IMG/VR virus record: IMGVR_UViG_3300012936_000001
Coordinates: 64,001 to 128,000 of that record
Reading direction: 5' to 3' (one strand)
Length of the DNA: 64,000 nucleotides
DNA from: a virus
Below are positions 1,186 through 43,239 of the stretch, one piece after another; position 1 is the stretch's first letter, and every line of letters begins with the position of its first letter. The notes under the pieces are model-generated. The model saw only the letters and a list, made by a program, of their open reading frames with translations, searched no databases and was not told the DNA's origin. The position numbers were made by a program, and so were the translations under genes.

Positions 1186-1211
1186 GAATAAAATGTTAAT
1201 TGGAGAAATCA

Positions 1212-2915
1212 ATGTCTAATATCTTTGATGAAGCGATTGCAGACGCAAAAAAACTAAAAGAAATTGCGGAACAAAATGCAAAAAATAGGATTATAGAGGC
1301 TGTTACACCTAAAATAAAAAGGCTTATCGAAGCTGAAATTGCTGGTGAAGACATGGACCTGGAAGATGCAGAAGAAGATTCTGATGATTATGAAGAGTTC
1401 ACAGCCGGCGATACTGCCATGGATGTGGATTCCTCTTCTGGGCTGGATCTAAGTTATAACGAACCTGTGGAACCAGAAATGCCAGCAGATATGGGGTCAC
1501 CTATGATGACCGACGACATAGATCTGGATGATGGCCTTGGCCTAGAAATAGAAGACGATAAACCAGAAAAGAACGTTGTCATCAACGTCACGGTAGAAAG
1601 TGCCAGAAAATCTGCGTTGTCAAAATTGAGAAAAAGAAAAGCAGTAAAATTACTTGAAAGTCTAAGAAGTGCTAAAAATGCAAGCAAAAAAAGAAAAATG
1701 CTTTCTGAATTGGCAAAACTACAAAGAGAGTGCATATCTAGTAGTAGTACTGTTGACAAAAAATTAGCAAGAAAATTATCAACTTTATTAAAGGAGACAA
1801 ATATGTCTAGAAGAACACGAAAAAACTGGTTTTTATTCGAAGGCGAAGGTGAAGGCGAAGACGAGGACTTGGATCTCGGCGGAGACGAAGATCTTGACCT
1901 TGAAGATGAAGACGAAGAAGTGGACGTCGATGCTATTAAGTCAGCAATCGAAGAATTAGCTGATGCAGTCGGTCTTGAAGTAATGGACGAGGACGAGGAC
2001 GAAGACGAAGACGTAGAGGGTGAAGAAGAGGAAGAGGAAGAAGATCTTGACCTTGGAGAAGCCGATATGGATGATGTCGATATGGCAGAGGGAATATACG
2101 AAGCTGACATGGATGAAGACGAGGATCTCAAAGAAGACGATGATAAAGTCGTTGAGATTAACGAGTCTGCTCTTCGTAGAGACCTTATGAGAATGAAGCG
2201 CAATGCTCGTAACCGTCGTTCTCGACGACTTGCAGAATCACGTCGTTCAAGAAGCGCAAGCAGAAGACGCCGCAGACTTTTTGAAGCAGAAGCAGTAGAT
2301 GCTGCTAGCCATTTTGGCGGCGGATCTGCCGAACAAGAAATGTTCATTGATGTCGACGAAAACACTCTTATTAATGCTCTCGCAGAAGAACTTGGAGACG
2401 CACACGATCTTGACATGAACATAGACGGATCTGGAGATGCTTCCAAAGCAGCCGGCCATTTTGGCGGCGGAAAAGCTCAGGCTATTCGTGAAGCAAGACG
2501 AAGAAGAGCAATCGCTCGTCGTGCAAAAATTACAGAGTCTCGCGCAAAGCGTGCAGTACTGGCTGAACGCAAGAAAGCTGCAGCTGCAAAGCGTGAACTC
2601 AAAGAATCAAATCTTTTTAATGCAAAATTGTTGTATGTAAACAAATTGATGCAACAGCATGTTCTAAACAAAAAGCAACAGCGTGCGATTGTTGAGGCTC
2701 TTGATAATGCCAAGACGTTACGTGAAGCAAAACTACTTTTCGAAGGGCTTTCTGATTCTCTTTCGAAAGCAAAAAGAAAATCAGGCAACAGCCTAAATGA
2801 ATCCAGAGTTATTTCCGGAAGATCATCAACTGCAACTCGTAGCTCTGCTCCTGCAACTACTCAAATGAGTTCGGACCTTTCTAGATGGCAAAAACTCGCT
2901 GGAATCAAAAAGTAA
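1212..2915 (+). CDS. Prohead core/scaffold protein (T4 gp22-like position)
   Basis: Directly upstream of the MCP. Acidic low-complexity tracts, Arg-rich segments, many [LI]xE sites, LKESNLFNAKLLYVNKL block and C-terminal RWQKLAGI. Start placed at ATG 1212 after GGAGA. Confidence 0.75.
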   Translation: MSNIFDEAIADAKKLKEIAEQNAKNRIIEAVTPKIKRLIEAEIAGEDMDLEDAEEDSDDYEEFTAGDTAMDVDSSSGLDLSYNEPVEPEMPADMGSPMMTDDIDLDDGLGLEIEDDKPEKNVVINVTVESARKSALSKLRKRKAVKLLESLRSAKNASKKRKMLSELAKLQRECISSSSTVDKKLARKLSTLLKETNMSRRTRKNWFLFEGEGEGEDEDLDLGGDEDLDLEDEDEEVDVDAIKSAIEELADAVGLEVMDEDEDEDEDVEGEEEEEEEDLDLGEADMDDVDMAEGIYEADMDEDEDLKEDDDKVVEINESALRRDLMRMKRNARNRRSRRLAESRRSRSASRRRRRLFEAEAVDAASHFGGGSAEQEMFIDVDENTLINALAEELGDAHDLDMNIDGSGDASKAAGHFGGGKAQAIREARRRRAIARRAKITESRAKRAVLAERKKAAAAKRELKESNLFNAKLLYVNKLMQQHVLNKKQQRAIVEALDNAKTLREAKLLFEGLSDSLSKAKRKSGNSLNESRVISGRSSTATRSSAPATTQMSSDLSRWQKLAGIKK

Positions 2916-2961
2916 GTTCAGCCCAAGTTAAAAACAAACACAACTTTTATTGGAGACAAAA

Positions 2962-4920
2962 ATGTCATTTACATTGCAAAAGTTGACAGAGGGCATTCGT
3001 CAACGTCACATGGGTGCCCAACATCAACGACTTACAGAAAAATGGAACCGCACAGGTCTTCTTCGTGGTCTTAACGGACAAAACAAAGAAAACATGGCAG
3101 TTCTTCTCGAAAACCAAGCCGCTCAACTTTTGAGAGAGGCAAACACTCTTGGAGCTACTAGTGCTAGTGGAACTGGTCCCTCTGCTTCCGGAGACATTCG
3201 CGGATTCCAGAACGTTGCATTCCCAATCGTTCGCCGAGTATTTGGTGGATTGGTTGCAAACGATCTCGTATCTATTCAGCCCATGAGCCTTCCAGCTGGA
3301 TTGCTCTTCTATCTTGATTACACTTACGGTTCAAGCGTCGGTGGAGCAGATGGAACAGTTGACTCTACTGTTTATCAACAAGGTCAGTCAATCTACAACA
3401 ACCCTGCTGGAAAAGGAATTCAGTCTGGTTCTTTGGCTGTAGGTGGACAATACGATCTTGCTGGTGCAGGATTCTCACGAAAGCATACAGCTGCTGTTCT
3501 GGCCGAATCAAATACACTCGGAACAAACATTGTAACAGGTGTTTGGAGTCCTAGCGACGCATTCCAAAATGGAGCTAGCGTTTCTGATGCTTACATCTCT
3601 GCAGTTGGACAGTTTACTGGTTCTAACGCTCGATTGATGCAATATGATCCTCAGATTCGTACTGCTCTTGATAATAACGAGCTCGGCGCTGTTCTTTTTG
3701 CTATGATCCCTACATCTTTGATGACTGGATCTAATTCAGAACAAGCTGATCTTACCATGATCAAGGACATTGCACTTACTGCTGAAAAGGCCGGAGAAGC
3801 TACAAACGCTGCATTGCTTACTCAGTGGGGAGAAAAATATCAAGGTGGAAACAACGTCAAGAACCTCCGACGTCTCAACCAATTGGTTACGTGGGACGGC
3901 TCTGGTCTTCCTGTGCATGCTCCTCTTGCTGAATACAATACTTCAAATGCTTATGTATTGATGGTTGTAAAAGCGACAAAGGGCGCAATCCCTACTCTTG
4001 CAACTTTGGCTGCCGAGCAAATTGGTGATCTTTCTTTCCCAATTAAGCCTACCAGAACTTCTGGCGACAGCGGCGATTCAATCTTGGTTCCAACTTTTGA
4101 ATCTAACATGCTTGCTGGTGCTTCAAACGCTCCTGTTATTCCTGAAATCGACATTAAGATCGAATCTATCTCTGTTACCGCGGTAACTAGAAAGCTTCGT
4201 GCTCGTTGGTCTCCAGAACTTGCTCAGGACTTGAATGCATACCACTCTATGGATGCAGAAGTTGAGTTGACTCAGATTCTTTCTGAGCAAATTGCTCTTG
4301 AACTTGACCGTGAGATTCTTAACGACCTTCTTACTCAGGCAAATGGTGCTAACCTTTACTGGTCACGCGCTCCTGGTAAATTCGTCAACAAAGAAACCGG
4401 TTCTCAGATTGCTGTCTCAACTTCTGTGGCAAGTCCTTCTTTCACTGGTACAGTTCGTGAATGGTACGAAACTCTTACAGAGACCATCATCGACGCTGCT
4501 AACACTATTCACCGTAAGACTCTTCGTGGATCTGCTAACTTCATCGTGGTTGGACCTGATGTTGCTACAATCCTTGAAAGCTCTGTTCTTTACAAGCCTG
4601 TATACAGCCTTGACGGTGACGGGCAAGTTGGTAACCCAATGACTATTGGCGCCGAGAAAGTTGGTAACTTGAGCAATCGTTTCACAGTCTACAAGGATCC
4701 TTACTTCCCACGTAACAAGATCTTGATCGGTTACAAAGGTGGTTCTTATCTTGAAACTGGTTATGTATATGCTCCTTACGTGCCTCTTATTGTTACCCCT
4801 ACGATCTTTGCTCCTGAGGACTTCACTCCTCGTAAGGGTGTAATGACTCGTTACGGTAAGAAGATGGTTCGTTCTGACTTCTACGGAACTGTTACATGCT
4901 TGGATATGCACATCATCTAA
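2962..4920 (+). CDS. Major capsid protein, T4 gp23-like
   Basis: FPIVRRVFGGLVANDLVSIQPM, TRKLRARWSPELAQDL, EIDRE-like ELDREI, YAPYVPL and FTPRKGVMTRY are gp23-family motifs. Large central insertion. Confidence 0.95.
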   Translation: MSFTLQKLTEGIRQRHMGAQHQRLTEKWNRTGLLRGLNGQNKENMAVLLENQAAQLLREANTLGATSASGTGPSASGDIRGFQNVAFPIVRRVFGGLVANDLVSIQPMSLPAGLLFYLDYTYGSSVGGADGTVDSTVYQQGQSIYNNPAGKGIQSGSLAVGGQYDLAGAGFSRKHTAAVLAESNTLGTNIVTGVWSPSDAFQNGASVSDAYISAVGQFTGSNARLMQYDPQIRTALDNNELGAVLFAMIPTSLMTGSNSEQADLTMIKDIALTAEKAGEATNAALLTQWGEKYQGGNNVKNLRRLNQLVTWDGSGLPVHAPLAEYNTSNAYVLMVVKATKGAIPTLATLAAEQIGDLSFPIKPTRTSGDSGDSILVPTFESNMLAGASNAPVIPEIDIKIESISVTAVTRKLRARWSPELAQDLNAYHSMDAEVELTQILSEQIALELDREILNDLLTQANGANLYWSRAPGKFVNKETGSQIAVSTSVASPSFTGTVREWYETLTETIIDAANTIHRKTLRGSANFIVVGPDVATILESSVLYKPVYSLDGDGQVGNPMTIGAEKVGNLSNRFTVYKDPYFPRNKILIGYKGGSYLETGYVYAPYVPLIVTPTIFAPEDFTPRKGVMTRYGKKMVRSDFYGTVTCLDMHII

Positions 4921-9246: not shown

Positions 9247-12200
9247 ATGGCAGAAAAATCTTTTAAATCACCAGGATTTTTTGAACAAGAAATAGAACTA
9301 ACTGTTCAGAGACAATCTCCCTCCGGAAATCCTGCAGGAATTATTGGAACGGCAGAAAGCGGACCGGCTTTTGTTCCAATAACAATCGGAACCTTTGAAG
9401 ACTTTCGAAATCGCTTCGGTGGTCTTCATCCCGACCGTTTTGGACCTTACGCTGTAAGGGAGTTCTTGAAAAATAGAAACGCCGTAACTTATATGAGGGT
9501 CCTAGGCGCTGGTTCAAATGATTCGCCGACAGATATTACGAATACAAAAGAGTATGGAATAGTAAAGAATGCCGGGTTTATTCTTAAAGGTTCTACTTCT
9601 GAAATCGATAGTAGAAAACCTGGAACTGTCCAATTCTTAGTGGCTCAGCATACAATACCAGCTGCTGCAGACATTGGATATCCTCTTTTTACAGACAATG
9701 AATCATTCCCTTCGGTACGGGAGTCTAGTAAAACTTTTACAGCTGACGCCGGAATATGCCTTGTTCGAGCGGTAATATTCACTCCGACCGGTTCTTTGAT
9801 GACGATACAAGACAACGACTATGATATACAAGCTGCGGCAAACGTGAATGCCGCAGATGATCTTGCAACTGCTGACAGTACAAATTATGCTGTGAAACTA
9901 GTCCTCAGAAATGGAGAATCATCGGAATTTGGCAATAGCGACGGAAAAGGAAGTAATTCTCAAGGCGTGAGAGTATATTCTGCTTCTTTAGATCCAGATA
10001 ATGTAAACTACATAGGAAAAGTATTGAACACAGATCCAAAGTTGTTCCAGCAAGAGCAACATTTGCTATACTTGGATTTTCCAATAGAAACTTCGGTTGC
10101 GACACCATCAACAACTGCAAACCATGTCGGCCTGTTAATGGGTGGAGCAAACACGGTTACTGAAGTTCCTACGTCTGTAATTTCGGATGTTTCGCATGCT
10201 TCAATATTCGGTAGATATGATACACGTTATAAGGCTCCGAAGACAACAAAATTTATTTCGCAACCATACGGAACCACAGAGTTTGATTTGTTTCATTTCG
10301 AACTTCTTTCAGACGGTTCAAACGCGAATTCTTTATATAAAATATCGATATCTAACATAAAGGCTTCTACAAATCCAAATTACAAATATGGAACATTCAA
10401 CGTAGAACTAAGAAAATTCAACGATATTGATCAGTCGCCAGAAATCCTAGAACAATATACCGCTTGTTCTTTAGATCCAAGAAACGAAAGGTTTATAGCA
10501 AAGGTCATTGGAGATAAAAAAGTTGTATATGATTTTGACTCAGAAAATGAAGATGAAAAAAGACTAGTAGTATCCGGAAGATATCCAAACAAATCTTTAC
10601 GTCTGAGGGTTGTAATGGAAGACGCAGTATATAAAGACCAGGTGCCAGAAGATGCTTTGCCTTTTGGTTTTAAGGGCATACCTGTTATAAAGACTTCGCC
10701 GAATACAAAACAAGCACCTGCTACTTTTGACCCAATCAACTCTTTTGGAACCGCGGTTGTGAGCGGAACAAAAAGATTGGCAGAGGAAGCTAGCACTGCG
10801 ACTGATCTTACCGGTTCAATCGTGCCTCCGCTTCCTTTCAGGTTCAAAGTAACAAAAGGCGCTTTGGAATCTACTTCCACCAGTGTTCATTATACTGGCT
10901 ACCCTGGAGCAAAAGAAAGAATCGATGGTCGTTTATACTGGGGTGTTCAATTTCAAAAGATTGGTTCTTCTATCTACGCTCCAAACGGTTCAAATAAGGC
11001 AAATGAATTTATAAAATCTTATACCAAATTTCAAGGAATTCAGAAAATAGGCGCGCTGTATTCAGACAGTGACGCAAATTCCTTTGGATCTAATAAATTT
11101 ACTCTGGCAAGAGTAGCCTTAGGTAATTCATTGTCCGGGGCCGGCCACATCTCGGACATTACAGGTTCGGCAAGTCAGCACATGTTGGAAGCAGCCTATA
11201 TAAGAAATGGAACGGTCAAAGCGTCAGATTACACAGTGAACGATGCTGTCTCCGGCGGCGATCGAATAACGTTGGCTACGCTTATAAATTCTTCTAGCGT
11301 GCATTTCAATCGATTCAGCTCTTTTGCAAAGTTCAACAATATATTTTTTGGTGGATTTGACGGACTAAATATACTGAACAGAGATATCAATAATATGACT
11401 GACAAAGCAGCGTCAACCGATTCTGCTGCTGGAGGACTTGGAGGAGATTCCATCACTGGAGGCCTGGGATTATCTGGAACAAACGATGGTAGCACAATGG
11501 GTAAAGGAAAATTGAATAACGTTATCGCTTCGTATAGACAAGCTATCAACATCATGACAGATCCTTTGTCTGTAAGGACTAATATTCTTGCAATTCCTGG
11601 AATAAGAGACGCTTATGTCACTGACCACGCTGCAGAAAAATCACGTGATTATGCAATGGGGTTCTACGTAATGGACATTCCATCTTATGATGAAGACGGA
11701 AATAGAATATTTATTGACGACGCATCAAAAGTTCCGGACGTTGATAAGACAGCCGAAGAACTAGAAGGAAGGGTTTTTGATAACAACTATGCTGCAACCT
11801 ATTTTCCAGATGTTTTTATTACAGATCCACAGAACAATAGAAGAGTATTGGTGCCTCCTTCGGTAGCTGCTATCGGCGCCCTTGGATTTTCTGATACTGT
11901 TGCTTATCCATGGTTTGCTCCCGCGGGATTCAACAGAGGGTCTCTTGGATTTGTACAAAATGTCAAAGTTAGATTATCAACACTAGATCGAGATACACTC
12001 TATGAAAGTAGAATTAATCCTATATCTACATTTCCTAATGGCGGATTTGTAATCTTTGGACAAAAGACACTTCAGTTGGCTCAGTCTGCTCTTGATAGAG
12101 TAAACGTAAGAAGGCTTATGCTTGAGGTCAAAAGACAAATTGTTAATGTTGCAAGAAATCTTGTCTTTGAACAAAACAATAACCAGACAAGACAAAGATT

Positions 12201-12408
12201 TATAAACTCTGCCGCCCCTAAGTTGGCGCTTATTCAGTCTCAGGCTGGAATAGAATCTTTCAAAATTATTATGGATGATTCGAATAACACTGAAGCAGAC
12301 AAAGAAGAAAACAGACTTAACGGAAAAATAATCGTCGTTCCAACCCGAGCAATTGAGTTTATTTCAATAGACTTTGTAATTACTAATTCGGGTGTTGCAT
12401 TTGAGTGA
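9247..12408 (+). CDS. Contractile tail sheath protein 1
   Basis: SPGFFEQEIE, IIGTAESGPAFVP, PWFAPAGFNRG, GQKTLQ, LDRVNVRRL, FEQN and PTRAIEFI motifs. Confidence 0.95.
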   Translation: MAEKSFKSPGFFEQEIELTVQRQSPSGNPAGIIGTAESGPAFVPITIGTFEDFRNRFGGLHPDRFGPYAVREFLKNRNAVTYMRVLGAGSNDSPTDITNTKEYGIVKNAGFILKGSTSEIDSRKPGTVQFLVAQHTIPAAADIGYPLFTDNESFPSVRESSKTFTADAGICLVRAVIFTPTGSLMTIQDNDYDIQAAANVNAADDLATADSTNYAVKLVLRNGESSEFGNSDGKGSNSQGVRVYSASLDPDNVNYIGKVLNTDPKLFQQEQHLLYLDFPIETSVATPSTTANHVGLLMGGANTVTEVPTSVISDVSHASIFGRYDTRYKAPKTTKFISQPYGTTEFDLFHFELLSDGSNANSLYKISISNIKASTNPNYKYGTFNVELRKFNDIDQSPEILEQYTACSLDPRNERFIAKVIGDKKVVYDFDSENEDEKRLVVSGRYPNKSLRLRVVMEDAVYKDQVPEDALPFGFKGIPVIKTSPNTKQAPATFDPINSFGTAVVSGTKRLAEEASTATDLTGSIVPPLPFRFKVTKGALESTSTSVHYTGYPGAKERIDGRLYWGVQFQKIGSSIYAPNGSNKANEFIKSYTKFQGIQKIGALYSDSDANSFGSNKFTLARVALGNSLSGAGHISDITGSASQHMLEAAYIRNGTVKASDYTVNDAVSGGDRITLATLINSSSVHFNRFSSFAKFNNIFFGGFDGLNILNRDINNMTDKAASTDSAAGGLGGDSITGGLGLSGTNDGSTMGKGKLNNVIASYRQAINIMTDPLSVRTNILAIPGIRDAYVTDHAAEKSRDYAMGFYVMDIPSYDEDGNRIFIDDASKVPDVDKTAEELEGRVFDNNYAATYFPDVFITDPQNNRRVLVPPSVAAIGALGFSDTVAYPWFAPAGFNRGSLGFVQNVKVRLSTLDRDTLYESRINPISTFPNGGFVIFGQKTLQLAQSALDRVNVRRLMLEVKRQIVNVARNLVFEQNNNQTRQRFINSAAPKLALIQSQAGIESFKIIMDDSNNTEADKEENRLNGKIIVVPTRAIEFISIDFVITNSGVAFE
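12078..12113 (+). repeat. 36-nt exact repeat shared by the two sheath genes (second copy 15173-15208)
   Basis: GGCTCAGTCTGCTCTTGATAGAGTAAACGTAAGAAG occurs at both positions. Confidence 0.9.
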
Positions 12409-12443: not shown

Positions 12444-15400
12444 ATGTCAGAACAAATATTAAAAAGTCCAGGAGTTTCCGCAAGAGAAATAGATCTGTCT
12501 CAACCAGGCAGCACATCCCCTAGGGGAATACCTGCTTGCGTTATTGGAACAGCTCAGAAAGGTCCGGCTTTTGTGCCTATTACCTTTGCATCTTATGCTG
12601 ACTTTAAAACAAAATTCGGTGGAACCGATGGAAAATTATTCGGCCCAATTGCTGTCGCGGAATGGCTAAGAAATGCTCAGTCAGCAACTTATGTGAGAGT
12701 TCTTGGCGTCGGAAATGCAAAAAAAGCAAATACAAACGGAACTACAACTAATGCTGGTTTTGTCGTTGGTAATAAGCTTCCTCAAGCTGGAGGAAACATC
12801 GGAAGGAACATACACGCTACGGATCTCCGTCCCGCTGGCCGAACATTCTTTTTATCTGCCTTTATGAAAGACAAGTCTGATGCAAATGCTGATAAAATTG
12901 GATATTTGACAGACGCAGATTTGTCTGGATCTGTAGATAAAGCAGTGTTGAGAGGTTGTATTCTTGTCGCTTCTGGTGTACGTCCTGCATTGTCCGGATG
13001 GGACGCTTCTGAACTGGATGCCCCAAATACTACGACAACAATAACTAGTGATGCTGGCCATGAGGTTGGAGCCGTAAATTTGAATACTAATGGCGATGAA
13101 TCATTTGTAATGTTCCTTAACGGATTCACGAATACAAATGCTCAAACGGCTATAATCACCGCTTCGATGAATCCTTTGAGTAAAAATTATTTTTCTAAGG
13201 TCTTGAATACAGATCCAACAAAAATAGAAGAAAAAGGTCATTATCTTTATGCTCATTTCGACGTTCATCCAAATCAGGCAACGGTTACTGCGATGGAATA
13301 TCCGGAGAGAGATAAGCAACTCGAAAACGCAGTGGGTTATGCTCACCGCGTAATAATTCAATCAGGTTCACATACTAGAAATACTTTTCATGGTTCACAA
13401 TACAAGCCTAATTTTGAAAACTTTGAAGACAAATTTAAACATGCAGAGTCTCCGTGGATTATATCTCAGACACTAGGTTCCGGACCAAAAAATCTATTCA
13501 AGGTATATGCGCTAGACGCCGGAGAATATGCGAATACTCTTTTCAAAATATCTATTGCAAATATTAAAAAATCTTCTGATGTTAATTATGATTATGGCCA
13601 ATTTGATTTGTTGGTAAGAGCATTCGATGATACGGATGCAGAGCCACAAATCCTAGAAAAATTCACAGCTTGCTCTCTAGATCCTTCTTCCGATCGATAT
13701 ATAGCTAGGGTTGTAGGCGATCAGAATATATTCTTTGATTTTGAGAAACAAGACGCAAATCAAAAATTGGTTATAGAAGGTTTGTACCCAAATAGATCGC
13801 AATATATCAGAATTAAGGTTGTCGACGATGTTGAAAATGGCGTTATTAGCGCAACTGCTCTTCCGTTCGGATTCCGAGGAAAGAAACACTTGGTTCTTGA
13901 TGGTGTTTCTCTTGGTCCTCTAGACGCATCTGCTACCACCGGTCTTGATGAAGCAGAAATAGACGGAAATGTCTTTGAACCGCCTGTTCCACTTCGAAAA
14001 ACTCTACGCATAGGGCAAGGATCATTGTCAAGAATCGATTCTCGACTTTATTGGGGTGTTCAAAATACTATGCAAGGATCTGTTCTTGATCCAAATGCAT
14101 CCAGTGTTATTAATCCTCTGATAGCTAACTTTACAAAATATTTTCCAACCTTTGGAACCTATGCTCCTTTCGTCGGAGACAACGCCGGCGCAGCGAATGA
14201 TTCCAATGGAGCAAAGCTTGATAGCGATGCCTATAATAACAACATGTTTACCTTCGAAAGAATATGGGCAAAATGTAAATCCGGAGCTGTTGCAAACGCT
14301 GTCGATAATTTGCAATGGCACGAAGCCGTTTATATCAGATCAGGTTCTACGCCGGCCGCTAATTCTGGGCTTGGATATTTCCAAGAAGATGACGGTTCTA
14401 CGCCGAAGACGGCTGCGAATGGATATAGATTCTTGGATTACACAAAAGACTTTGGCGAACAAGCTTCGAAGAAATTCTTCAAGTTTACTACATTTTTGCA
14501 AGGCGGGTTTGACGGTTTGAATGTCTTCAAGAAAGATATGCATGAATTGGCCAACAATCAGGCACATCGAGAAGCTCTATATTCGACGTCAACCGGTTAC
14601 GGAACAACTGGGCCTACGATCGCGGCATATAGAAGAGCACTTGATATAGTAGCAGAAAAATCAGACGTCGATATTCAGTTGTTGGCAATTCCTGGTATTC
14701 GAGAGCCATCTATCACCGACTATGCCATCGATCAAGTAGAAAACAGATTTGATGCATTGTACATTATGGATGTAGAAGAAGAAGAAACTTCTGCTGGAAC
14801 AGTCGTAACTTCGTCTTTGCAAAATATCAACGTAACAAATACTTCTAATCGACTTTCAAACAGAGTGCTTGATTCTTCTTTTGCAGCGGCATATTTCCCA
14901 GATGTGATCATTGCAGATCCGGATTCAACAGCCAACATTCAGTCGCCACCTTCTTGTGCAGTATTAGGAGCAATGTCTCTTAACGACTCTGTCGCGCATC
15001 CTTGGTTTGCGCCTGCAGGATTTTCTCGCGGGGCTTTGTCGTCAACTATCGAAGCACAAGTAAAATTAAATCGTGCAAATATGGATTCTCTTTATGAAGC
15101 AGACATCAATCCTATAGTTGCTTTCCCAACTTCTTCTGGTGTTGTAATCTTCGGACAGAAAACTCTTCTGCAGGCTCAGTCTGCTCTTGATAGAGTAAAC
15201 GTAAGAAGATTGCTGATAGACATCAGAAGAAAAGTAAGATTGGTCGCAAACTCTGTGTTGTTCGAGCCAAACAGAGAGTCAACTCTTGCAAGATTCTCTG
15301 CTTCCGTTCAGCCGATTCTTACGGTTATTCAACAGCAACAAGGACTAGATAGATTCAAAGTCGTTATCGATACAACCACAACAACCCAGCAAGATGTTGA

Positions 15401-15500
15401 GAATAATACGATAAGAGGAAAAATCTTCTTGCAACCCACAAGAGCTGTAGAATTTATCTCTCTAGATTTTGTTGTTACAAATGCTGGTGCAGAGATTTAA
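12444..15500 (+). CDS. Contractile tail sheath protein 2 (paralogue)
   Basis: SPGVSAREID, GPAFVP, PWFAPAGFSRG, LDRVNVRRL, FEPN and PTRAVEFI motifs. Confidence 0.95.
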   Translation: MSEQILKSPGVSAREIDLSQPGSTSPRGIPACVIGTAQKGPAFVPITFASYADFKTKFGGTDGKLFGPIAVAEWLRNAQSATYVRVLGVGNAKKANTNGTTTNAGFVVGNKLPQAGGNIGRNIHATDLRPAGRTFFLSAFMKDKSDANADKIGYLTDADLSGSVDKAVLRGCILVASGVRPALSGWDASELDAPNTTTTITSDAGHEVGAVNLNTNGDESFVMFLNGFTNTNAQTAIITASMNPLSKNYFSKVLNTDPTKIEEKGHYLYAHFDVHPNQATVTAMEYPERDKQLENAVGYAHRVIIQSGSHTRNTFHGSQYKPNFENFEDKFKHAESPWIISQTLGSGPKNLFKVYALDAGEYANTLFKISIANIKKSSDVNYDYGQFDLLVRAFDDTDAEPQILEKFTACSLDPSSDRYIARVVGDQNIFFDFEKQDANQKLVIEGLYPNRSQYIRIKVVDDVENGVISATALPFGFRGKKHLVLDGVSLGPLDASATTGLDEAEIDGNVFEPPVPLRKTLRIGQGSLSRIDSRLYWGVQNTMQGSVLDPNASSVINPLIANFTKYFPTFGTYAPFVGDNAGAANDSNGAKLDSDAYNNNMFTFERIWAKCKSGAVANAVDNLQWHEAVYIRSGSTPAANSGLGYFQEDDGSTPKTAANGYRFLDYTKDFGEQASKKFFKFTTFLQGGFDGLNVFKKDMHELANNQAHREALYSTSTGYGTTGPTIAAYRRALDIVAEKSDVDIQLLAIPGIREPSITDYAIDQVENRFDALYIMDVEEEETSAGTVVTSSLQNINVTNTSNRLSNRVLDSSFAAAYFPDVIIADPDSTANIQSPPSCAVLGAMSLNDSVAHPWFAPAGFSRGALSSTIEAQVKLNRANMDSLYEADINPIVAFPTSSGVVIFGQKTLLQAQSALDRVNVRRLLIDIRRKVRLVANSVLFEPNRESTLARFSASVQPILTVIQQQQGLDRFKVVIDTTTTTQQDVENNTIRGKIFLQPTRAVEFISLDFVVTNAGAEI

Positions 15501-18429: not shown

Positions 18430-18863
18430 ATTTACAAGAAGTAAAGGTAGGCGATTGTTGTTTTTTTCTCGTGCGTGGTGTGAATACACCAAAATTTGGT
18501 GAGATTTACAAAATTAGCGAAAAAGAAGAAATCATTCATGTAATAGAAGTCAAGGACTCGAAGTACTATTCAGTACATTCTAGAAATTTTGCATGGAACA
18601 AAGAAGACTTAAAAGATAAAAAATGGGAAGATCCACATAATTATAATGACACAGTGGAGAATGCTAATGAAAAAGAAACTACTAAAAGAAGCAGTAATGT
18701 TCATAACAGGAAGAAGGCCTCAGATTCAAATAAAAGGAGAATCAAAAAAAGCAAAGGCACTTCTGAGAGTGATGGTAGCAAGCAAAAATTTATACGAAGC
18801 ACTGGAAAGCAAAAATCCAAAACTAAAAGAAATAGAAAAGCTAGTAGAAATAAAAAAGGTTAG
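18426..18863 (+). CDS. Hypothetical protein (SH3-like N-terminus, basic tail)
   Basis: VKVGD...FGEI beta-barrel-like pattern. The C-terminal 65 aa are encoded over the next gene. Confidence 0.6.
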   Translation: MNLQEVKVGDCCFFLVRGVNTPKFGEIYKISEKEEIIHVIEVKDSKYYSVHSRNFAWNKEDLKDKKWEDPHNYNDTVENANEKETTKRSSNVHNRKKASDSNKRRIKKSKGTSESDGSKQKFIRSTGKQKSKTKRNRKASRNKKG

Positions 18864-32502: not shown

Positions 32503-33192
32503 ATGGCATATCTTAATCACAACATTCCTGTGTTGACCTGTTATATTAGAAATGAATATCTTTTTAATCACACCAAAGGTCACGGGGATTTTACTCTTTG
32601 CGACGTACATTCTGTCGCCAGTTTAGAAAAAAGGTCCCCATTGTTTGAGGCTTTTTTAGAAAATGGCGTTAATTGGACTAGAAGGCCAATTACTGCTTTT
32701 TGCTGGAAAAAAGACGCCCCAATTAGACCTTTATGGGAACATATGTATTGGGATTGCTTTTCTCCATACATTGACGTACAAATAAGGCAGAGAATGGCCG
32801 GTCTGAGAGCCGAGCTTATCTTACCCTTCGGAGAACGACAAGAAGGCACATATCTTTTTTCTTTAGACTGGGGCTGGGAATCAAAAGCGGGTTTTACAGA
32901 CGTGAATTTTTCCGAAACACCAGAACATAAATGCGCGCATGTTTTTAAGATGGACGAAGGAAACTATTTTGCATATCCTAATAATAGAATAATATGGTAT
33001 GACGATGCCTGGACAAAGGATCGGATTAAAGGAAATCCAGGATATATTATTGATATGAACGTATACACCGTAGAAGGCGTGAGAAAACTCGAGACTGATT
33101 ATCAGTTTATGACAGAGTTCAAAAAAGCTGACCAAAAAGATTTTAAGGACGATTTCAAAAAAGAAGACGCTGATGAGAAAAAAAATACTTAA
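32503..33192 (+). CDS. Phage hypothetical protein
   Basis: 229 aa, aromatic-rich; YLNHNIP, WDCFS, PEHKCAHV and YPNNRI motifs. Function not recognised. Confidence 0.8.
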   Translation: MAYLNHNIPVLTCYIRNEYLFNHTKGHGDFTLCDVHSVASLEKRSPLFEAFLENGVNWTRRPITAFCWKKDAPIRPLWEHMYWDCFSPYIDVQIRQRMAGLRAELILPFGERQEGTYLFSLDWGWESKAGFTDVNFSETPEHKCAHVFKMDEGNYFAYPNNRIIWYDDAWTKDRIKGNPGYIIDMNVYTVEGVRKLETDYQFMTEFKKADQKDFKDDFKKEDADEKKNT

Positions 33193-34009
33193 GGAATGTA
33201 TTGTCCTTGCAAAGAAAAACAAGAATGGATGTTATCTTGCAAAAAATAGAGATAGAACATATAGTCCTACAACACAGGTTGTCCATGGAAACTATCCCTA
33301 TTTGGAGTACATAGTTCTTTCCGATACAGATACAGGATATTTTGAGGGAGTCAACGCAACAACAGGAATTGCCGCCTTAAATTCTGCGCTGTTGAATGGC
33401 GTTGATTTTGGAAAGTCCAAGTCACCCGAAGGTTACAGAATGCTAAAATCTTTACTTCATTCATCGACAATTGAGGAAATGATAGAAAAAATAACAAAAG
33501 AAAACAAAGTCTTTGGATGTACCGTTATAACAGATGGGCATGATATTTGCGTAGTAGAATCAGATAAAGATAATCATAAACACAAAATATACACTAATCC
33601 GGAAGAATATATTGTGCGTGCAAACCATGGAAAACTTCTGGGAAATGCAGGATATGAACCAAGTGAAGCTGATGATTATCTTTCCTCAAAAACAAGAGAA
33701 GCTGTGGGAGAGATAATTGTGCATAACTCGGAATGCATTGATGACGTCATGTCTAATTTTCTATATCCTTTTTTTGACAATATGGGAGCAATTAATCCAA
33801 CACGAAGTACAGATTACATGAGCACAACCTGTCAGCTAGGTATTGATATGGAGAAAAAAAGATTCTTAATTACTGATATTCCCGGAAAGCAGAAGTTTCT
33901 TGGTGTCAAGAAAATCGGTCCGTGGGAAAACAAACCGACTTGGAAAATTGAAGTTGTAGACTACAACAAGCCACTGCGTCCGTCTTTTAAATTCTGGGGA
34001 ACTCGATGA
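33173..34009 (+). CDS. Ntn-hydrolase (N-terminal Cys nucleophile; NRDE/TANGO2- or C45/C59-like)
   Basis: C9-IVLAK...LAKNRD, FEGVN..G and VRANH motifs. Confidence 0.65.
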   Translation: MRKKILKECIVLAKKNKNGCYLAKNRDRTYSPTTQVVHGNYPYLEYIVLSDTDTGYFEGVNATTGIAALNSALLNGVDFGKSKSPEGYRMLKSLLHSSTIEEMIEKITKENKVFGCTVITDGHDICVVESDKDNHKHKIYTNPEEYIVRANHGKLLGNAGYEPSEADDYLSSKTREAVGEIIVHNSECIDDVMSNFLYPFFDNMGAINPTRSTDYMSTTCQLGIDMEKKRFLITDIPGKQKFLGVKKIGPWENKPTWKIEVVDYNKPLRPSFKFWGTR

Positions 34010-34335
34010 AAAAATTTAGCTTACTGAAATATTTGAACCCATATAACGATTTTAACGATTTGTCTGGACTAGAATCTGATGAAGCAGAACGTCTGGATAA
34101 TACGAAAAATTCCAAGGTGTATAGACATGCTTCTGATTCTATAGAAGAAATGATAAGTTCTTTACAAGCTATCGAGGCTGCTCTTTTACGTGGCGATGTC
34201 GCGGCTACCTATGCTCTAGAAGACAAAGATCTTCATGATATAAAAAGAATACTAAAGAGATTGAAAAAAAGATACATGGGTTTGTTACAAATGAAAGTCG
34301 ATGTGTCTGCAAAAAATTATAAAAAAGATTTATAA
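34006..34335 (+). CDS. Hypothetical protein
   Basis: 109-aa helical ORF with an ATGA overlap. Confidence 0.65.
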   Translation: MKKFSLLKYLNPYNDFNDLSGLESDEAERLDNTKNSKVYRHASDSIEEMISSLQAIEAALLRGDVAATYALEDKDLHDIKRILKRLKKRYMGLLQMKVDVSAKNYKKDL

Positions 34336-42789: not shown

Positions 42790-43239
42790 ATGGTTGAAAT
42801 ATTTTCACAGTGGATTGCGACCCATAAAGCAGTCACATCATGGTTCCATGCTGCTCACCACCTTACAAAAGGTGTTGGGTTCGGCGGGGACCATGTTAAC
42901 ATTTACGGAAAGATATATACAGAATTTCAAGAAGACTTTGATGCTATAGTTGAAAAAGGGCTTGGGTTATGTAACGATGAGACGCTAGCAGATCCTCTCA
43001 CCATATTGTCATCCGCATCCACAATGTTAGGCCAATACTTTCAGCCATCAAATTCTTGCCCAGATAAATTAGCCATCGCTGCATGTGAATTGTCAAAAAG
43101 ATATGTCGATTTATTACAGCAGTTTTATACGAGGTTTGAGTCCTGTGGGCATTTAACTATGGGTCTTGACGACATGATGGCAGCCATGGCAAATCGATAC
43201 GAAACGCATGTTTATCTACTACAACAGAGAGTAAAATAA
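42790..43239 (+). CDS. Dps/ferritin-like protein
   Basis: HAAHHLTKGVGFGGDH..IY..IY....D.IVEK parallels the Dps HW.V.G..F...H...D...ER pattern; about 150 aa, four-helix pattern. Confidence 0.7.
   Translation: MVEIFSQWIATHKAVTSWFHAAHHLTKGVGFGGDHVNIYGKIYTEFQEDFDAIVEKGLGLCNDETLADPLTILSSASTMLGQYFQPSNSCPDKLAIAACELSKRYVDLLQQFYTRFESCGHLTMGLDDMMAAMANRYETHVYLLQQRVK

Follow-up and report, generated by a model that had tools for sequence, protein, structure and literature searches.

How does an enzyme that needs its nucleophile as the first residue of the mature chain become active when that residue is encoded behind eight others? The question is raised by a gene at positions 33173-34009 of a 64,000-nucleotide stretch of viral DNA (hereafter the window, meaning the whole stretch analysed), which corresponds to positions 64001-128000 of the 167-kb IMG/VR virus record IMGVR_UViG_3300012936_000001, about 62% complete. 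The gene encodes a predicted N-terminal nucleophile (Ntn) hydrolase with its candidate catalytic cysteine at residue 9, and an earlier note, made from the DNA letters alone, had proposed that the eight-residue leader is taken off by the prohead protease of the phage. The elements on which this proposal turns are the following.

33173..34009, plus strand: precursor gene of a predicted Cys-Ntn amidohydrolase, 278 amino acids (open reading frame (ORF), AlphaFold2 model, Foldseek and VIA matches, 486 representative relatives)
33173..33196, plus strand: leader M1-E8, MRKKILKE, basic and resembling a capsid-targeting sequence (CTS), ending in L6-K7-E8, which reads as an I/LxE prohead-protease site (sequence)
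33197..33199, plus strand: codon of Cys9, the predicted N-terminal nucleophile once the leader is removed (invariance in 141 sequences, structural alignment)
33242..33256, plus strand: K24-N25-R26-D27-R28 motif, with K24, R26 and D27 invariant across the family (alignment columns)
33617..33628, plus strand: R149-A150-N151-H152 (RANH), with N151 invariant and R149 and H152 near-invariant (141-sequence alignment)

The ORF starts MRKKILKECIVLAKKNKNGCYLAKNRDRTY, that is, MRKKILKE-CIVLAKKNKNGCYLAKNRDRTY, and the two further motifs that had been read in it are present, EGVN at residues 58-61 and RANH at residues 149-152. ATG 33173 is the earliest start past the preceding stop, and there is no ATG, GTG or TTG between it and the Cys9 codon. 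The leader is therefore translated in any product of this gene.

Fold and family of the Ntn protein

Searches with the protein itself returned a single sub-threshold Schlafen match in Pfam, nothing to PF03417 (AAT) at E <= 0.1, no match in PHROGs and, in sequence and profile searches of the PDB (alignments A2 and A3), chance-level matches only. We therefore turn to structure prediction and to the relatives of the protein. An AlphaFold2 model built on ten homologues reached a predicted local distance difference test (pLDDT) of 73 and a predicted template modelling score of 0.79, with leader residues 1-6 at pLDDT < 50. When this model was searched with Foldseek, every match at E <= 1e-3 was an Ntn enzyme, the top ones being AAT (E 7e-6), choloylglycine hydrolases, penicillin V acylases (PVA), C69 dipeptidase, NAAA and PurO. 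VIA-align gave Z 17.1 for NAAA (root-mean-square deviation (rmsd) 3.1, 190 residues), 16.2 for acid ceramidase, 13.1 for AAT and 13.2 for bile-salt hydrolase (BSH), and its Z 12-16 range covers acid ceramidase, AAT, BSH, penicillin G acylase (PGA) and PvdQ. In nearly every row of the VIA comparison with processed chains, the alignment starts by pairing model residue 9 with the first residue of the mature chain, namely C126 of NAAA, C143 of acid ceramidase, C103 of AAT, C2 of BSH and S1 of PGA and cephalosporin acylase. Beta-strand E9-16 of the model begins at Cys9, which puts the nucleophile at the head of the first strand of the mature chain, as expected of an Ntn enzyme, and AlphaFold2, VIA and Foldseek concur on a four-layer alpha-beta-beta-alpha fold. 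The claim of an Ntn fold with Cys9 as nucleophile, made in the earlier note, is thus upheld by these comparisons.

An exhaustive profile search recovered 486 representative relatives at E <= 1e-3, 141 of which make up the family alignment. Invariant in these 141 sequences are C9, K24, R26, D27, D51, E58, G59, N61, D78, G115, N151 and R175. PF03417 was reached by 62 of them at E <= 0.01 (P0010 scores 28.2 bits against a cut-off of 23.2), and the nearest clusters in the ESM Atlas are AAT. Judged by predicted fold and invariant residues, the Ntn protein is a catalytically intact Cys-Ntn amidohydrolase and a distant sister of peptidase C45/AAT; we treat it as a sister group and not as a scored member of PF03417 because its relatives match that profile and it does not. 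We take K24, R26 and D27 to be the counterpart of the Arg/Asp pair (R18/D21 in BSH) that holds the free alpha-amino group, an assignment made by analogy from the motif. The spacing of the invariant K24, R26, D27, N151 and R175 along the chain is presumably like that of BSH R18/D21/N175/R228, and N151 would by analogy be a candidate oxyanion-hole Asn.

Membership of TANGO2/NRDE (PF05742), a comparison drawn in the earlier note, was rejected. The Ntn protein has no match to that profile, which is reached by 2 of the 141 relatives (best E 1.1e-3) as against 62 for PF03417; in place of an NRDE motif it carries KNRDR, and it lacks a Met-Cys start.

If Cys9 occupies the Ntn nucleophile position, as modelled, residues 1-8 must therefore come off for activity, and on the strength of the model we hold this need for leader removal to be highly probable. 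What removes the leader, and where, is a separate matter, on which the residues in front of the cysteine bear directly.

The junction before the cysteine

E8 and C9 are both invariant in the ten closest homologues, across leaders of 4-10 residues such as MRKKLLNE, MKQKNNLFE, MPKNLNE, MINE, MILKE and MSTKKQLLKE. Family-wide, the cysteine is preceded in one of three ways, by [L/I/V/M]-x-E, by [K/R]-x-[A/G/S] or directly by Met. The [LIVM]xE-Cys class holds 64 of the 141 representatives, with Glu at P1 in 64/64 and L, I, V or M at P3 in 63/64. A further 129 E-junction loci in IMG/VR carry 59 distinct leaders, in which P3 is L in 31, I in 24, V in 3 and M in 1. Glu directly abuts Cys in all 193 of these sequences (64 representatives and 129 IMG/VR loci), even though the leader length varies, from 3 to more than 20 residues, and in some the Ntn domain lies internally. 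Given a chance rate for [LIVM]xE of about 0.0167 per position, one L-K-E before a cysteine could be chance; the expectation of an [LI]xE-Cys junction behind variable leaders was nevertheless borne out among the closest homologues, the representatives and the IMG/VR leaders alike.

The [K/R]-x-[A/G/S]-Cys class comprises 72 of the 141 representatives, with a basic P3 in 72/72 and often the form MxREA-Cys. Its Ntn domain is N-terminal or lies inside proteins of 670-3133 residues in huge non-T4 phages, and for many of the representatives the protein has 1000-3100 residues; examples are IMG/VR loci L008, L009/L080, L064 and L017 and the metagenome locus L007, two of them with a eukaryote-type topoisomerase I core. 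Among relatives of the Met-Cys type, the ATG starts are real, some with a Shine-Dalgarno-like sequence upstream, and such starts occur at the IMG/VR loci L020-L032, L038, L039 and L131, close relatives that come from S77-encoding phages. In a maximum-likelihood tree the E type occupies most basal branches, and the small-residue type forms one clade (support 0.88).

In deposited phages, tblastn matched the Chryseobacterium phages MA9V-1 and MA9V-2 only. The MA9V-1 gene MA9V1_182 (OR050627.1 152544-153368; L167:2977-3801; protein WIC41446.1), annotated as hypothetical, is a cultured member of the family with the leader MTSANNNEFLNE-Cys and is 43% identical to P0018. The virion protein data for these two phages consist of sodium dodecyl sulfate-polyacrylamide gel electrophoresis, with no mass spectrometry (PMC10537231).

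A prohead protease and shared leaders in the same genome

The source genome encodes a gp21-type protease. Pfam Peptidase_S77 (PF03420) matches at G000:C1:62169-62585 (E 1.9e-27, 92.6 bits), about 1.4 kb before the window, within a gene at G000:C1:62079-62684, about 1.3-1.9 kb ahead of it. The protease itself begins MSDLKLLTE, with an LxE ending at residue 9 that mirrors LIE-9 near the N-terminus of T4 gp21 (PMC9026906). T4 gp21 prefers I/LxE (PMC12991175, PMC5694885), and the T4 CTS is an N-terminal propeptide of about 10 residues in which residues 8 and 10 govern processing (PMC9026906). The E-class junction coincides with this preference, P3 being L or I in 55 of the 59 distinct leaders. The match to the gp21 consensus that had been noticed at this gene is present as L6-K7-E8 in a phage with an S77 protease of its own.

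Across the family, S77 was found in 15 of 21 records of E-type relatives and in 4/4 records of the Met-Cys type. Each of the 5 E-type records with a completeness of >=90% has it, and completeness is 37-89% in the six that gave no match. S77 was found in 0/8 records of the [KR]x[AGS]-Cys type, one of which is 618 kb and 92% complete, with no Pfam match to S78 or Gp23 either, and seven of which are 10-23% complete, implying genomes of several hundred kb for these seven. S77 is also present in a 137-kb relative from the clade of the Ntn gene itself and in Chryseobacterium phage MA9V-1, where the S77-like domain sits in a 1349-residue frame. Junction type tracks head-protease type, as a correlation and not as independent replication.

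The leader is not peculiar to the Ntn gene. In a crude call of 175 genes in the genome, we searched for a basic segment with [LIVMF][LIVM]xE after it, the Glu falling at residues 5-20, and found this pattern in 35, against 10.7 expected from the rate inside proteins (Poisson 3e-9), although about 10 of the 35 belong to one MKITKRQLKRIIKE paralogue set, so that the count is not one of independent events. The protease itself counts among the 35. Two examples adjoin the protease gene, MKLKRSVLKQLIKE-C and MSAKAFRNFVIRE-A, and further unrelated ones are MSKSLKKLLLE-S, MKKKLLKE-A, MDRTIKKIIKE-T, MDKRKIKSIIKE-S and MKKKYSLKRILGE-A. The likeness to the leader of the gene at 18667, to which the note had pointed, is real, and the leader type it represents is common to unrelated genes. 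About 10 paralogous or cassette-like genes carry a near-identical 14-residue leader, M(K/R)(I/L)(T/S)KRQLKRII(K/R)E, followed by unrelated sequence, for example at window positions 43239, 43649 and 61839 and at G000 52540, 53385, 134906 and 162177-164918. The comparison gene and two presumed head substrates lie in the window as follows.

18667..18863, plus strand: comparison gene with the leader MKKKLLKE-A (translation MKKKLLKE, then AVMF; genome coordinate 82667)
1200..2915, plus strand: 571-amino-acid, highly charged, scaffold-like protein with about 40 [LIVM]xE sites, just upstream of the major capsid protein gene
2950..4920, plus strand: Gp23-type major capsid protein (PF07068, E 4.2e-76)

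The 571-residue protein has no family match; with its long acidic and basic runs, it is probably a scaffold chopped by the prohead protease. The N-terminal region of the capsid protein has four sites of the same kind, LTE, LTE, LLE and LRE-A.

A second site ahead of a C-terminal module

Six of the ten close homologues are longer, at 406-442 residues, and their extra C-terminal part is homologous to the ORF that follows the Ntn gene.

34006..34335, plus strand: downstream 109-amino-acid ORF, the detached C-terminal helical module (BLASTP to P0005, alignment A6)

This ORF aligns with residues 283-382 of P0005 (BLASTP E 3e-6). Short-form Ntn genes end in ..WGTR or ..WGLQ, and the gene boundary here, ..WGTR* / MKKFSLLKYLNP, falls exactly at the linker position of the fused forms. 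A sequencing error at the junction of the two ORFs was considered and rejected, given that four short homologues (91-41% identity) end alike and that L002 has the same two ORFs.

In the fused relatives, an [LIVM]xE stands just before the C-terminal module in 14/14 cases (P0005-P0013, L003 and L005 among them) from at least seven lineages. Its variants are LPE, LKE, MSE, VNE, LDE, IDE and INE, ahead of the module motif L..(Y/L)L(D/N)P. The distance from site to module, measured in 11 of the 14, is 2-6 residues, for which the chance expectation is about 12.6% per lineage. In a model of P0005, residues 265-280, before LPE (281-283), have pLDDT < 50 (block mean 27) and form a predicted disordered linker, and the module itself consists of two long helices. 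After the Glu of this second site comes N, S, G, A, V, T or F; no Cys occurs there, and in no case is the residue a nucleophile in an Ntn context. Self-cleavage therefore cannot explain the second site, and because that site fits the substrates of an I/LxE protease, the same protease offers an economical explanation of the cut between Glu and Cys.

Fused forms mostly have minimal leaders (MNE, MINE, MILKE, MLSE) and split forms mostly longer basic ones, and some fused forms end in a CTS-like tail, ..IRKLIIE-TRK. These small numbers hint that a targeting signal can sit at either end. A complex prediction for the mature Ntn domain with the downstream ORF scored 0.00 and carries no weight either way.

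How the nucleophile may be unmasked

Taken together, these observations suggest an enzyme made as an inactive precursor, in which Cys9 would be masked by MRKKILKE. The S77 protease of the phage would cut E8-C9 at L-K-E during head maturation and create the active N-terminus, and the enzyme would enter the prohead, lose its leader inside and travel with the virion. Loading is suggested by the resemblance of the leader to the short capsid-targeting propeptides on many unrelated genes. We infer the cutter, the place and the packaging, and our confidence differs between them: that the protein is a zymogen unmasked by the S77 prohead protease is the account we mildly favour, and that the cut occurs inside the prohead, with the enzyme as cargo, is plausible but falls somewhat short of probable. 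The protease-activated zymogen of the earlier note is accordingly retained in part. The fold, the junction, the S77 gene, the shared leaders and the second site speak for it; its strict form, with activity in the virion only, is at odds with the Met-Cys relatives, with cytosolic cutting by gp21 and with self-processing kin.

A number of observations weigh against unmasking by the S77 protease in the head, and several of them lend support to other explanations. The Ntn gene is placed amid replication genes (gp32, UvsX), not head genes. In the 20-kb loci of relatives, neighbouring N-termini that match the locus's own Ntn leader are about 2-fold enriched (0.0059 vs 0.0030), which is too weak to use, and the link between junction and S77 is confounded by phylogeny because the junction classes are clades. 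The earlier note had held that homologues beginning Met-Cys without the Glu would speak against the idea. Such homologues do exist, with at least four origins on the tree, three of them inside S77 phages, so that leader and packaging are not essential to the enzyme; the E junction is nonetheless found in about half of the family. Leaders such as MNE and MINE are too short for a T4-like targeting signal, and many relatives have leaders of 3-5 residues. T4 gp21, moreover, cleaves an LPE loop of a cytosolic host protein and suffices for this when expressed alone (PMC12991175), which tells against the strict form, since activation that depends on the protease then need not occur in the capsid. These short leaders, the replication-gene block and the cytosolic activity of gp21 would all suit a protein that is no cargo at all, with S77 unmasking Cys9 in the cytoplasm late in infection and the leader serving as a timing lock, for example on a late or lysis-linked amidase. 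We consider this improbable, as the basic leader here is similar to the longer ones found on genes for likely head cargo, the helical C-terminal module of fused relatives, some with a CTS-like tail, could supply targeting, and T4 gp21 activity is described as restrained by autoproteolysis that rapidly ends it (PMC12991175).

A more serious rival, though in our judgement still an unlikely one, is classic Ntn autoproteolysis, in which Cys9 would attack the E8-C9 bond through an N-to-S acyl shift and the leader would fall off without the phage protease. The hydrophobic P3 and acidic P1 would then serve self-cleavage, and the likeness to gp21 sites would be coincidence or secondary adaptation. The nearest structural relatives (NAAA, acid ceramidase, AAT and PVA) self-process, as do the cephalosporin and penicillin G acylases, which gives autoproteolysis a high prior, and an acidic P1 is known at self-processing sites, ..EE-Cys in the Bacillus subtilis PurF propeptide and Asp-Thr in glycosylasparaginase. 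The strict [KR]x[AGS]-Cys of the sister clade, with a small P1 as in AAT and PVA and with S77 not found there, suggests that the family can self-process. The Ntn domain also often lies in the interior of a large protein, an arrangement that recalls the alpha/beta precursors of other Ntn hydrolases, and the Met-Cys variants show that the mature domain needs no leader. Autoproteolysis leaves unexplained, however, the second [LIVM]xE at the boundary with the C-terminal module, the likeness of the leader to those of about 35 other genes and the I/LxE match in 55/59 leaders, and a self-trimming enzyme would not need the protease site of a targeting tag to abut the Cys in every E-class sequence. Least probable is a leader that is never removed, the protein being inactive or having an internal-Cys or binding-only role and the junction being conserved for folding. 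The failure of the Ntn protein itself to match any Pfam model would be in keeping with this; the invariance of Cys, K-x-R-D, N151 and R175 in 141 sequences is not, and the independent shifts to Met-Cys show selection for the Cys becoming N-terminal.

Genomic setting, neighbours and possible function

The source virus is a marine T4-type myovirus, with a Gp23-family capsid, two tail-sheath paralogues, a tail tube and a baseplate hub, together with gp32, UvsX, RNase H-like, DnaB and NrdA homologues. The tail-sheath paralogues are adjacent (window 9247-12408 and 12444-15500; 1053 and 1018 residues), with the match to the sheath family limited to the last ~300 residues of each. Megablast of 10 kb against phage records gave no match. 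The window has 4 copies of the T4 late-promoter motif TATAAATA, the expected number being 4.2, and a scan for sigma-70 promoters and terminators around the Ntn gene stayed at chance level. The Ntn gene shares its first 20 nt with the upstream ORF and an ATGA with the downstream one. A-runs lie at both of its ends, A8 in the leader codons (AGAAAAAAAATA; 33176-33186) and A6 at the ATGA junction (34008-34013).

32503..33192, plus strand: upstream 229-amino-acid ORF (phrog_3704 match)
L044:8912-13456, L069:4133-9409, L033:8006-11971, L083:9569-13633 and L070:927-4895: kinase/nucleotidyltransferase polyproteins of relatives, 1300-1760 residues

The upstream ORF matches phrog_3704, labelled ferredoxin (E 1.6e-43), has no Pfam match and finds viral hypothetical proteins only in the ESM Atlas. 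In L163, where the Ntn relative is 41% identical, the gene upstream of P0005 matches it at 26% identity (E 2e-7). The same position being kept in L163, the upstream ORF is possibly a functional partner and may work with the Ntn enzyme.

In other E-type phages, the Ntn domain lies inside proteins of 900-1760 residues that also contain a P-loop kinase (AAA_33/Zeta-toxin-like) and a cytidylyltransferase-like nucleotidyltransferase. Several of these polyproteins begin MNKLTE and have another [LIVM]xE about 10 residues before the nucleotidyltransferase domain, and from these sequence features they look like proteins cut by a protease. In the megaphage clade, the Ntn domain occurs together with a topoisomerase I core. 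Our best guess from the modelled relationships is that the target would be an acyl-amide or other linear, non-peptide C-N bond, either of a small molecule or of a component of the envelope. Extended to the whole family, the proposal would make the head-maturation protease the obligate activator of a packaged Ntn amidase, which it would also cut from the C-terminal module, the kinase and the nucleotidyltransferase, and which would act in the next host as the DNA enters; we put this forward tentatively, as somewhat more doubtful than the packaging of the enzyme studied here.

Comparison with known systems and implications

The closest parallel on the side of the phage is provided by the T4 internal proteins IPI-IPIII and Alt, CTS-bearing proteins processed by gp21, with which the present case shares a short propeptide ending in I/L-x-E, an encoded S77 protease and a leader type found on unrelated payloads (PMC9026906, PMC5694885). 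It differs in that the residue after the cut is here the predicted nucleophile, so that cleavage would create an active site and not merely free a protein; the leader, a predicted propeptide, has 8 residues as against 10-20 in T4. In the activation of a CD-NTase of the cyclic-oligonucleotide-based antiphage signalling system, a prohead protease cuts LPE, an I/LxE-type site, in a disordered segment and switches an enzyme on (PMC12991175), and the linker of the fused P0005-P0009 has LPE as its site too. That enzyme, however, is a sensor in host defence, and the cut falls in an internal loop, whereas the present enzyme is encoded by the phage and the cut would expose the nucleophile at its N-terminus.

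Among Ntn enzymes, AAT (peptidase C45) shares the Cys-Ntn fold, with Cys9 aligned to Cys103, but cleaves itself at Gly102-Cys103 and retains its alpha chain, about 100 residues long, in contrast to an 8-residue leader and Glu-Cys here. NAAA and acid ceramidase are the best structural matches, at rmsd 3.1-3.2 across about 190 residues from the nucleophile onwards, yet they are 10-13% identical and are eukaryotic lysosomal lipid amidases that self-activate at acid pH and retain the alpha subunit. BSH and PVA (C59, PF02275) have the Cys-Ntn fold too (Z 12-13) and are unmasked by removal of Met (BSH Cys2) or loss of a 3-residue propeptide (PVA), both styles that occur in this phage family; PVA, however, trims itself at Gly-Cys, and these enzymes have no link to a phage protease and no match here at sequence level. 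The present case is best classed as a combination of known kinds, Ntn zymogens and T4-type propeptide processing.

Our literature search found no report linking an Ntn hydrolase to a prohead protease, nor any of a CTS-like propeptide whose cutting creates an Ntn nucleophile. To our knowledge, Ntn hydrolases are unmasked by self-cleavage or Met removal only. If the proposal is true, unmasking would have a third route, through a foreign, dedicated protease whose cut makes the nucleophile, and the enzyme would be the first among Ntn hydrolases with such a protease as its activator in trans. The arrangement of leader, I/LxE and Cys would then offer a design rule for protease-gated enzymes. For the phage, it would amount to a simple lock that holds the amidase inactive in the cell where it is made and has it ready in the virion or the late cell. 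Virions would carry pre-armed enzymes, a new class of capsid cargo, and the idea of capsid targeting in T4 would reach beyond small anti-restriction proteins and take in enzymes and polyproteins of the abundant, uncultured T4-like phages of aquatic environments.

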